This document shows, in pieces, positions 5,525-7,314 of a stretch of DNA of 37,102 nt. The stretch spans positions 1 through 37,102 of the forward strand of contig CAYNAP010000002.1 in the NCBI GenBank assembly GCA_964395285.1, read 5' to 3'. This stretch comes from an uncultured Candidatus Saccharibacteria bacterium (GTDB lineage: Bacteria; Patescibacteriota; Minisyncoccia; Sungbacterales; SURF-37). Within the stretch, counting starts at the first letter, position 1. Each line of letters starts with the position of its first letter. The translations under genes were made by a program, and so were the position numbers. The notes beneath the pieces are model-generated. The model did not search any database, was not told the DNA's origin, and saw only the letters and a program-made list of their open reading frames with translations.

Positions 5525-5600
5525 TAATTTACGAGGCCGAGCTTAGAATGCGCCTAAATCGATCTTACGAGGCCTTACGAGGCCGGGCCTCGTAAGATCG
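5525..5600. repeat. REP-like palindrome cluster (TTACGAGGCC units)
   Basis: Three ttacgaggc units are present. gatcttacgaggcc (5562-5575) is the exact reverse complement of ggcctcgtaagatc (5587-5600). Confidence 0.7.
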
Positions 5601-5614
5601 TAAACATAAAACAT

Positions 5615-6208
5615 TTGGTGAATACAGAGCCACACAAATTCACAAAGTTCATCGGCGCTAGCCCGCGTAAGGCGCTTGTTGCGGTTATCGTTTCGGCTTT
5701 GGCTCTCGCCCTTATTTTAATTCTTATTTTGCGTGGCAGGGAATCCAAAACCGATGGACTCGCTCCGCCAATTTTAGGGTCGGGAGGCGAACAGCCGCTT
5801 CGCAGCAACCCTGACCGCGAGTACACAAGCGATAAATACAGTTTTTCCCTTAGCTATCCGGAAAATCTGCGTCTAACTTTATTTGAAGAAGAAAATGGCG
5901 AAACGCTTGTTTTTCAGGGTCCTGCCGCAAGAGATGGATTCCAAATATTTATCGTTCCGTATTCTCGTGGGGATTCCATTGATGCTGGCAGCGTTACCGC
6001 GGTGTTTCCGGACACCGAGATTCATGACTCCCAAGCGGTGGATATTGACGGCGCGAGAGGCGTGATGTTTTTCGGCAAGTCAGACACCATCGGCAAGACG
6101 CGCGAAGTGTGGTTTGCCCACCGCGGCTATCTTTACGTTGTTACCACCTATGCCGATTTGGACGCTTGGCTTTCCCAAGTTTTCTCAACTTGGAAGTTCG
6201 CTAAATAA
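5615..6208 (+). CDS. Hypothetical membrane-anchored protein
   Basis: A 197-aa ORF with a TTG/GTG start. It has one N-terminal TM segment (ALVAVIVSALALALILILIL) followed by a soluble domain. No family recognised. Confidence 0.5.
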   Translation: MVNTEPHKFTKFIGASPRKALVAVIVSALALALILILILRGRESKTDGLAPPILGSGGEQPLRSNPDREYTSDKYSFSLSYPENLRLTLFEEENGETLVFQGPAARDGFQIFIVPYSRGDSIDAGSVTAVFPDTEIHDSQAVDIDGARGVMFFGKSDTIGKTREVWFAHRGYLYVVTTYADLDAWLSQVFSTWKFAK

Positions 6209-6268
6209 GCACTTCTCGCCACTTTTATAGATACCAATGGCCTTCCGGCCGTGGTGCTCGCGCACCTT

Positions 6269-6407
6269 CCAGCAATTTTGCCAAGCGCGAATGCGCATTT
6301 GGCAAAATTGCTGGGTCTATATATTCGCCTACGCCAGTCCCGCTGGAAGCGGGACTGGCTCCGGGCTTGCATTCAACTGCGGCCGTAAGGCCGCAGTTGA
6401 ATGCAAG
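6269..6407. repeat. Three consecutive perfect hairpin palindromes with unrelated sequences
   Basis: Stems are 6269-6284/6299-6314 (16 bp), 6333-6343/6349-6359 (11 bp) and 6366-6384/6389-6407 (19 bp, GTAA loop). Confidence 0.85.
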
Positions 6408-6415
6408 GGAATATA

Positions 6416-7314
6416 AATCTTACGAGGCCCGGCCTCGAAATGCGCAGGGTTTGGCAAGCTTCACTCGCGTTCCGTTACTTTACGAGGCCCGGCTTCATAA
6501 ACATACAAAAGCTTAAAAATCTTCTAAGATAATCTCCGTTATCTCGTCAACGTTCAATGCTGTTATCCAATCTAGTATTGATTGTTGATAATCTTCAGCC
6601 GTTCCATAGAGCTCTTTGATGGACTCACTTGCAAGTATTGAGGTAAAATTTCGCTTTCCTGTGTAGTCAAGATAGCTCGACCATCTGTATGAATTCAGAT
6701 GCCTTAGCGCGGCTCGTTGGTCTTTAATTTTCCCATCCCTCCAGTCAGGCATCACCGTATCTAGTGCGTTGAGGTGAATATAATGGGGCAGGTAAAGGAG
6801 GTGCGGCTCCCGCTCGATTAGAACAGCTTTGAATCTACCTTGAAATAGGCCGCCAACTCGCTGATACTTCTGATTAAAATACATGCTATAGCCGGTCCCG
6901 AGCTTATGCATAAATCGGGTAATGCCTCGATCGCAGTGTTGGCGCAGGAGTAGATGATAGTGATTAGGCCTTAAACAAAAAGCAATAATCTCGACGAGTA
7001 TTTTACGAGGCCGGGCCTCGTAAACTTTGTAGGATTTCAGTGCTTGCTGGCGATAGTAAATGTTATCAGCCGACTCCTCGTCGTTGAACTCAAAAAGATT
7101 GTGGGCGAAACGAAAACGATCGTCGTCATCTATAAATATTTTTCGTTTTTCAACTCCCCGGCTATAAACGTGGTAGATCGAGTCTGTCGCAAGTTGAATC
7201 TTCCTCATAAAGCGATTATAACAGATCTTTATAATCTTACGAGGCCCGGCCTCGAAGGCCGGCCTCGAAGGCCTCGAAATGCGCAGGGTTTGGTAAATTT
7301 CACTCGCGTTCCGT
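6416..7314 (-). mobile_element. RAYT/IS200-like Y1 transposase unit bounded by directly repeated REP-containing flanks
   Basis: 6416-6476 and 7232-7314 match at about 58 of 61 positions apart from a 22-nt ggcctcgaa-type expansion in the right copy. Each flank begins with the palindrome cgaggcccggcctcg. Confidence 0.55.
6513..7208 (-). CDS. REP-associated tyrosine transposase (RAYT) / IS200-like Y1 HUH transposase
   Basis: HUH motif in PNHYHLLL. Tyrosine motif region GYSMYFNQKYQRVGGLFQGRFK. The N-terminus HVYSRGVEKRKIF is typical of COG1943-type proteins. Confidence 0.75.
   Translation of the reverse strand: MRKIQLATDSIYHVYSRGVEKRKIFIDDDDRFRFAHNLFEFNDEESADNIYYRQQALKSYKVYEARPRKILVEIIAFCLRPNHYHLLLRQHCDRGITRFMHKLGTGYSMYFNQKYQRVGGLFQGRFKAVLIEREPHLLYLPHYIHLNALDTVMPDWRDGKIKDQRAALRHLNSYRWSSYLDYTGKRNFTSILASESIKELYGTAEDYQQSILDWITALNVDEITEIILEDF

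Follow-up and report, generated by a model that had tools for sequence, protein, structure and literature searches.

In the genome of an uncultured Candidatus Saccharibacteria bacterium (GenBank assembly GCA_964395285.1) we analysed a stretch of 37,102 nt, contig CAYNAP010000002.1 (contig C2 in our numbering), referred to below as the window. The subject of this analysis is a gene for a RAYT-like Y1/HUH nuclease (RAYT, REP-associated tyrosine transposase; REP, repetitive extragenic palindrome), together with the palindromes that lie around and inside it. The open reading frame (ORF) is intact, occupies positions 6513–7208 on the minus strand and yields a protein of 231 aa with the motifs PNHYHLLL and YFNQKYQRVGGLFQGRF, as had been proposed in the first-pass annotation of this DNA; the assignment relies on PF01797, NCBIfam and the predicted fold, the HUH histidines being H83/H85, and the tyrosine, Y143. 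The palindrome family at the locus has the form TTACGAGGCC-S-GGCCTCGTAA.

The scanned assembly comprises 917 kb in 104 contigs (50% G+C, 83% complete), and copy counts are to be read as lower bounds. The core CGAGGCCSGGCCTCG, with at most two mismatches allowed, was found at six positions in the window (5578, 6423, 6483, 7006, 7240 and 7253), compared to 0.12 matches expected from shuffled sequences, none of the 100 shuffles having reached six; the palindrome copies listed in the first pass are hence genuine. They had also been described as confined to this neighbourhood, and this holds for the exact core, all four copies of which in the 917 kb are situated at the locus, but not for one variant palindrome (GAGGTC/GGCCTC) at position 6518 of contig C11. 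Likewise, the palindromes had been said to surround the gene, which is correct for the flanking copies, whereas one copy (7002–7024) is inside the ORF and in frame.

This in-gene copy (tttacgaggcc-g-ggcctcgtaaa, 11-nt arms; slot 1) codes for V62–K69 (VYEARPRK) and folds as single-stranded DNA with −9.9 kcal/mol (z = −4.5). The upstream unit (7229–7314, minus strand), which is copy 2 of a direct repeat, consists of a palindrome with the core at 7240–7254, a 22-nt half-arm expansion and 36 nt of unique sequence; its folding energy is −15 kcal/mol (z = −3.1), and the center of the palindrome is approximately 39 nt before the ATG, matching the position of the upstream palindrome in 41 of 45 relatives. 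The stop-proximal palindrome (6480–6500; slot 3; ttacgaggcccggcttcataa) starts 12 nt past the stop codon and is decayed, its folding being lost (−1.8 kcal/mol, z = 0.3), although the same slot is filled in 40 of the 45 relatives. Further downstream, copy 1 of the direct repeat (6411–6476, minus strand, core 6423–6437) is a duplicate of the upstream palindrome unit that has no 22-nt expansion and whose palindrome folds weakly (−6.3 kcal/mol, z = −1.7). On the gene strand the order is the unit, the box TGtTATAAT, the ATG, the gene, the stop codon, the decayed palindrome and, again, the unit. Extra copies are located at 5529–5600: a degenerate partial unit (5529–5555) and a hairpin with 15-nt arms (5560–5600; −18.5 kcal/mol, z = −6.65), containing a perfect palindrome with 11-nt arms (5574–5596) and a duplicated left half-arm.

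The two direct flanks of about 61 nt, with a 22-nt expansion in the right one, had already been noticed in the first pass. Aligned as 6411–6476 versus 7229–7314, they differ by three substitutions and a single 1-nt gap, and the upstream copy additionally contains a 22-nt insertion, GGCCTCGAAGGCCGGCCTCGAA. The repeat unit is composed of 36 nt of unique sequence and the palindrome, with homology stopping 4 nt beyond the palindrome foot, and genome-wide the non-palindromic 36 nt are found at these two copies only. The flank-to-flank match of 83 nt (a 61-nt matching repeat plus the 22-nt insertion) makes this locus an outlier, as at the other loci the match is approximately the palindrome alone (21–40 nt). 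We infer that the direct repeat arose at this locus specifically, either when the upstream unit was duplicated or when a tandem copy was subsequently deleted as far as a hairpin. A decayed gene fragment around the in-frame hairpin was also considered as the source of the flank repeat and rejected, as the palindrome alone matches, and the other 36 nt are found nowhere but in the two repeat copies.

Tandemly duplicated half-arms are found in the upstream copy, where GGCCTCGAA stands three times, as well as at 5562–5584, in the variant on contig C11 and beside the downstream copies of several relatives; thus, break points tend toward the hairpin center or foot. Among the local copies, only the one at 5574–5596 and the in-gene one are perfect palindromes. 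Together with the loss of folding in the stop-proximal copy, this suggests partial erosion of the locus compared to other family members, although the gene has remained intact. A sister palindrome, taaatcttatgaggtt-g-aacctcataagattta (8410–8442; 33 nt, perfect, 16-nt arms), is situated in the intergenic stretch that separates a HepT gene from the following nucleotidyltransferase gene; it folds with −13 kcal/mol (z = −8.6), has the outer arm aatctta.gagg in common with the palindrome of the gene, and differs from it by three compensated base-pair changes, all of them transitions. This sister palindrome also resembles the palindrome of one relative (L001).

For the protein, the Pfam model PF01797 (Y1_Tnp) matched residues 68–145 with 36.4 bits (cut-off 23). 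The sole NCBIfam match was REP_Tyr_transpos (NF047646, the RAYT equivalog) with 27.1 bits, below the 80-bit cut-off, and none of the IS200 models in the same profile search matched. H83-Y-H85 and Y143 (LPHYIHLN) are invariant in 118 relatives, and in a profile alignment to E. coli RayT the HUH motif pairs with HMH, and YIHLN pairs with YIYINP. An AlphaFold2 model built from the alignment of 118 sequences had a predicted local distance difference test score (pLDDT) of 84.3, whereas the one built from 16 sequences had 45.6, which was too poor, and was left unused. The only low-confidence segment of the model is residues 52–64; the hairpin-coded residues 62–69 close this loop, right ahead of the strand 72–79 and the HUH strand 83–90. 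The closest fold in the PDB is 4er8_A, the E. coli RAYT with a REP hairpin (E = 1.2e-4, template modelling score 0.60 on the target), followed by structures of IS608 and ISDra2 TnpA. A PDB search by sequence retrieved nothing with the single sequence and only ISDra2 TnpA (E = 0.2) with the 16-sequence profile. The same genome contains a classical IS200-type TnpA, which scores 85 bits on PF01797, compared to 29–37 bits for its three RAYT-like genes. The placement on the RAYT or the IS200 side is based on these hidden Markov model scores, the fold match and the in-genome contrast, and they point to a Y1/HUH enzyme that leans to the RAYT side, in a clade that appears to be distinct from ordinary IS200 transposases. 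The IS200/IS605-type TnpA gene itself (10031–10345 on contig C32) is cut by the contig end and has H-I-C at the expected HUH position, and a second fragment, with a TAA stop, is at 4933–5067 on contig C65.

The search for relatives of the protein yielded over 2,800 of them, with a length of about 233 aa; a scan with one genome per species gave 584, of which the best 80 loci were examined, nearly all of them from metagenome-assembled genomes (MAGs) of Patescibacteria. In the 102 nt before the HUH motif, a palindrome scoring at least 8 was present in 48 of 72 genes, compared to 24 of 286 control stretches from the same genes. At the 45 loci with an in-gene palindrome, the same palindrome was observed within 150 nt upstream of the ATG in 41 cases, at or after the stop in 40 cases, and in both places in 36 cases. 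A second in-gene copy at +472 to +511 was seen at six of these 45 loci, and at loci with an empty slot 1 a copy often occurred at +459 to +483 instead. These fixed slots, including the in-frame one, are family-wide and, as judged from the compared loci, would undergo rapid concerted change; it is this that is new relative to the first pass.

The in-gene copy could be a mere passenger, that is, a REP-like element inserted in a tolerant loop and unrelated to the function of the enzyme. In this case one would expect it to occupy a permissive protein region, and the slot is indeed a disordered loop in the AlphaFold2 model; moreover, a palindrome of the type found at the paralogs of this gene is present in frame in the PolX gene of the window. 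The precedent is provided by the Rickettsia palindromic elements, which are 100–150 bp long and reside in protein-coding genes; we know of no cognate enzyme for them and of no fixed slot in one. Like the copies described here, they are palindromic repeats translated in frame in tolerant protein regions; elements of this kind are also mentioned in PMC1779305. However, the slot is filled in approximately two thirds of the 72 relatives, each time by the sequence that matches the own flanks of the locus, and such filling demands either ancient presence with concerted change or repeated targeting, and is beyond chance. Hence we give the passenger explanation very little credence.

The arms of the palindromes in the relatives are 10–22 nt long and mostly perfect, with a center of 1, 3 or 5 nt. 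The palindrome sequence is lineage-specific with full covariation of the arms (GAGGTT/AACCTC, GAAGTC/GACTTC, GAGGCC/GGCCTC). The peptides encoded in the in-gene slot vary accordingly (EVQPRK, EVEPQY, EVGLRY, EARPRK), being translations of palindromes GAr-GTy-n-rAC-yTC, and the reading frame of the slot also differs between loci (xEVxPx versus VRSPTP). Single copies may carry private palindromic extensions that are absent from the sister copies. The arm covariation, the differing frames and the private extensions taken together argue that what is maintained would be base pairing, rather than the peptide or a protein-binding half-site. One locus (L081:1896–3702) contains two family genes in tandem, each with its own palindrome; the first one (ctatggaagtt-S-aacttccatag) uses the second in-gene slot (YGSSTS), and a fourth copy of the palindrome of the second gene, with 16-nt arms, is situated approximately 280 nt upstream of the ATG of that gene. 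A comparison of this locus with L082 as a filled and an empty site gave no evidence on mobility, the contigs diverging 77 nt from the nearest palindrome.

The loops of the flanking copies were compared with those of the internal copy. For 1-nt loops we observed the same nucleotide in 28 cases, the complementary one in 33 cases and another one in a single case; ten multi-nucleotide loops are exact reverse complements of each other, e.g. GGG/CCC, CCGAA/TTCGG and ACCGA/TCGGT. Similarly, the upstream and downstream copies of the relatives have complementary loops at 22 loci and the same loop at 12. Therefore, the copies occur in both orientations at random, and the direct rather than inverted flanks, which the first-pass annotation had pointed out, are not a property of the family.

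As for the upstream copy, an extended −10-like box, TGtTATAAT (7215–7223, minus strand), was read by eye 6 nt before the ATG, which suggests that the transcript may be leaderless or near-leaderless. Also by eye, in the unexpanded repeat unit a pair TGCGCA-18 nt-TAAGAT spans the palindrome, and in many relatives there is a −10-like box a few nt past the upstream palindrome, 6–12 nt before the ATG, in some of them with TTGACT abutting the other side of the palindrome. Autoregulation via the upstream copy is plausible from this arrangement. The palindromes could be double-stranded operators of a dimeric autoregulator, either this protein or another one, with one site at the promoter and auxiliary sites within and behind the gene acting by looping, similarly to lac O1/O2/O3 and gal OE/OI. 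In agreement with that, the sites have perfect two-fold symmetry, the orientation of the loop is irrelevant, one copy is in the putative promoter region, in some relatives with TTGACT on one side of the palindrome and the −10-like box on the other, and the spacing of the slots is conserved. On the other hand, the arms reach 14–22 nt, exceeding typical operator half-sites, the private palindromic extensions in single copies indicate that pairing itself is kept, and exact inversion of a multi-nucleotide loop needs copying of DNA rather than selection of half-sites. The protein, in addition, has the fold of a nuclease acting on single-stranded DNA hairpins, and E. coli TnpA-REP did not bind double-stranded REP (PMC3333891). 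We consider the operator explanation unlikely.

The hairpins could also act in RNA, by affecting mRNA stability, translation pausing or termination, and their likeness would then reflect a common RNA-binding partner. In agreement with that, the in-gene and stop-proximal copies are transcribed, and downstream copies are followed by a T-run at 9 of 39 loci; however, an A-run ahead of the hairpin is equally frequent (9 of 39). A consensus scan of the locus found no terminator, and Rfam had zero matches across positions 5300–8600 of the window. Furthermore, the upstream copy precedes the likely transcription start, and the loop inversion alters the RNA loop at no visible cost. An RNA-level role as the reason for this arrangement thus seems highly improbable.

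The time scale of the changes can be seen at one relative, P0094, which, together with its one-residue variant P0086, was found on 18 contigs from different samples, always beside dnaX. Eight of these contigs were aligned over 3970 nt, with 8–19 differences from the reference. Two alleles of the upstream palindrome exist, TTATGAGACT-T-AGTCTCATAA on 11 contigs and TTACGAGGCT-T-AGCCTCGTAA on 7, and the four positions at which they differ are mirrored, making up two compensated base pairs. For the downstream copy there are five alleles; in one of them the inner pair is converted on both arms, and in another, which is half-converted, on the left arm only (GAGACT/AGCCTC). All four combinations of upstream and downstream alleles are present, and both protein backgrounds are represented. 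Mirrored changes of this kind, restricted to palindromes of 21 nt, cannot have arisen as independent point mutations; they indicate that sister copies convert one another, or that conversion takes place inside hairpins, within a very short time. In a pair of relatives with 98% protein identity (L077 and L079), the in-gene copies differ at the loop (C/G) and at one arm base.

Tight bracketing of the gene by hairpins, here directly oriented and on one strand, is reminiscent of the subterminal hairpins of IS608, and one could assume an autonomous insertion sequence (IS) of the IS200/IS605 type, the upstream and downstream hairpins being its left and right ends and the internal one being incidental. 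Consistently, many relatives have no common neighbours, and there are several family members per genome. However, the three family proteins of this genome are merely 48–54% identical to one another, which speaks against recent transposition, and the assembly contains no near-identical whole copies. Some pairs of relatives at 68–76% identity retain their neighbours, but synteny does not extend to most pairs, and the identical P0094-type protein always occupies one site, next to dnaX. The orientation of the flanks among the relatives is random, the true IS200-type TnpA of the same genome is clearly separated on PF01797 (85 versus 29–37 bits), with zero NCBIfam IS200 matches for the protein studied here, and the conserved in-frame copy would be left unexplained. 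We regard an autonomous IS as very unlikely.

In MAGs with several family members, each member has a different palindrome. Besides the gene in the window, this genome has two paralogs, at 909–1610 on contig C50 with three copies of TATCGAAGTC-S-GACTTCGATA, and at 1714–2400 on contig C24 with three copies of GATTGAAGTC-S-GACTTCAATC, the third of which overlaps the TGA stop of the gene. The common core of the palindromes of these two paralogs, GAAGTCSGACTTC, was counted 16 times in the assembly, and 10 of these copies are dispersed outside the gene loci. The window contains one perfect 21-nt palindrome of this type (30455–30475; tattgaagtc-g-gacttcaata), which is in frame, codes for IEVGLQ and sits in the PHP domain of the 586-aa family-X DNA polymerase (PolX) gene (29340–31100).

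Other palindromes were noticed in the assembly. ccctcccaccaaa-W-tttggtgggaggg has at least nine copies on contigs C3, C6, C14, C15, C31, C49, C67 and C82, and is often followed some 45 nt later by cccacaccaaaa-g-ttttggtgtggg; they represent another repeated hairpin family, for which a cognate gene is not obvious. Palindromes tatggaggtt-S-aacctccata with arms of 11–15 nt, at C22:12091, C63:4652 and C76:3433, resemble those of the relatives L008 and L030, and no RAYT-like gene matching them is present in this 83%-complete assembly.

Two kinds of REP have been characterised in systems of this type (REPtrons). The REPs of E. coli are imperfect palindromes with a GTAG tag, both of which are needed for binding, the double-stranded REP remaining unbound (PMC3333891); in group 3, from Stenotrophomonas, the palindrome is perfect, has a loop of 3 nt and is likewise preceded by GTAG (PMC8266576). 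The group 3 REPtron (TnpA-REP of Stenotrophomonas maltophilia K279a with REP-Sm; PMC8266576) resembles the locus studied here in that cognate REPs, which are perfect short-loop palindromes, border a Y1/HUH gene, and in that the cognate REP changes from paralog to paralog. It differs in that REP-Sm are GTAG-preceded, dispersed and present in high copy, whereas here there is no GTAG tag and the few copies occupy fixed slots, and in that an in-frame REP copy in the transposase gene, present here, has not been described for it. With the E. coli RayT/YafM REPtron (4ER8; PMC3333891, PMC3479197) the common features are the fold, the alignable HUH and Tyr residues and the hairpins flanking the gene; the E. 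coli gene is single-site and does not hop, which is probably also true of the gene studied here. In contrast, the E. coli REPs are bulged imperfect palindromes with GTAG in hundreds of copies, no inverted repeat within the rayT ORF of E. coli is better than 10 nt at 90%, and RayT has 165 aa, compared to 231 aa here, with a longer N-terminal loop and a C-terminal extension.

Elements of the IS200/IS605 family (IS608, ISDra2 TnpA) have the same catalytic fold and one-strand subterminal hairpins flanking the gene, but they move as whole units, and their left and right ends are distinct and include guide sequences, whereas the family described here, with its random flank orientation and internal copy, reads as resident. 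Among rolling-circle initiators there are genes that contain their own origin, pT181 repC and phiX174 gene A. As in the present case, the hairpin or nick site of an HUH enzyme is inside its own coding sequence, but these are replicons with one origin, whereas here the gene is chromosomal, the site is present three or four times, and nothing points to a replicon. A full-text literature search found no paper linking RAYT, TnpA-REP or REP to Patescibacteria, nor one describing a REP inside its RAYT gene, and we rate the layout as a variant of the REP/RAYT kind for which that search found no published description.

We favour, with some reserve, the explanation that the locus is a RAYT-like nuclease gene with cognate hairpins in fixed slots, between which the enzyme drives copying and conversion of hairpins in single-stranded DNA. 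What the data themselves show is how the locus is built and conserved, that loops are inverted between copies, that the variants in the population are compensated, and which fold the protein is predicted to have. The ORF would encode an intact nuclease for single-stranded DNA, of a RAYT-like Y1/HUH clade that extends across the Patescibacteria, and TTACGAGGCC-S-GGCCTCGTAA would be its putative cognate hairpin. The slots would be located approximately 40 nt before the ATG, in the putative promoter; in frame, in a predicted disordered surface loop before the HUH beta-strand; and at or just past the stop. Hairpins would be repeatedly copied or converted between these slots in either orientation, which would be why the copies are alike within a locus and differ between lineages. 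The likely agent is the enzyme itself, which may bind and cut hairpins formed in single-stranded DNA during replication and rejoin them, driving conversion, and the upstream copy may regulate transcription. Nicking and rejoining of hairpins in vitro is known for TnpA-REP and for IS608 TnpA. The gene as a whole would be resident and would not hop, and the downstream duplicate of the upstream unit, that is, the 61-nt direct repeat, could be a scar of a hairpin-to-hairpin rearrangement.

Several points weigh against this explanation. The clade is known here from sequence and predicted fold alone. The palindromes do not have the GTAG tag common to both characterised REP groups: GTAG or CTAC occurred within 14 nt of 10 of 81 flank palindromes, compared to 9.5% at random positions, and at none of the copies in the window. 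Hence the RAYT-type designation given in the first pass, backed by the sole NCBIfam match, by the 4er8 fold and by the contrast with IS200, is weakened both by the missing tag and by the sub-threshold score (27 versus 80 bits). The palindrome of this gene is barely dispersed, its four exact cores all being at the locus with one variant on contig C11, and because of that no REP-mobilising activity is visible for it; the REP/BIME-like population (BIME, bacterial interspersed mosaic element) suggested earlier is not borne out, and the near absence of the palindrome elsewhere in the genome comes close to failing the REP reading for this gene. General hairpin repair or recombination, instead of the enzyme, could be the cause of the conversion. 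The P0094/P0086 contigs were retrieved by exact protein identity and are hence blind by design to variation of the in-gene copy. Finally, a consensus scan detected no sigma-70 site on the gene strand, which counts against the promoter assignment.

One may go further and suppose a self-addressed system, where the enzyme nicks and rejoins its cognate hairpins, rewriting those in its own reading frame and its own promoter; we regard this as a tentative possibility only. If it is true, the gene carries a protected master copy of the substrate, and the hairpin and the gene are inseparable by recombination or transfer. Hairpin-to-hairpin joining, if true, would also yield half-arm duplications, mosaic alleles and solo-unit scars similar to the 61-nt repeat.

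In the vicinity of the gene, adjacent nucleotidyltransferase modules are located at 7502–8392 and 8527–8943, the first one paired with a HepT toxin gene (MNT/HepT toxin–antitoxin type); thus, the RAYT-like gene is in an accessory-gene-rich region. The convergent intergenic region 6269–6407 contains three strong hairpins of unrelated unique sequence, with arms of 21 nt (90%), 12 nt and 19 nt (both perfect) and loops of 3–4 nt; they are outside the repeat family. On contig C11, too, the extra palindrome copy is followed by a series of GC-rich hairpins (6560–6780). On the other side of the extra copies, 3133–5505 encodes a 790-aa DUF2341/LamG-type protein, a long segment of which (from NNWYSPNWLYRKKITLQSSQ) is repeated almost identically, as a result of either recent internal duplication or an assembly artefact.

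REP/RAYT systems serve as a model for domesticated single-strand transposases, and to our knowledge it is still unknown how REPs are copied. The clade described here would be a minimal version of such a system: a single gene accompanied by three or four hairpins whose places are fixed, copies elsewhere being very few. The turnover of its hairpins can be read directly from natural variants, such as mirrored compensated changes, loop inversions and half-converted intermediates, and therefore the mechanism of copying is testable. It would also be a clear case in which a DNA structure dictates some of the residues of a protein, the hairpin being translated in frames that vary between lineages, and the clade may account for odd in-frame palindromes in housekeeping genes of Patescibacteria, such as the PolX gene in the window.

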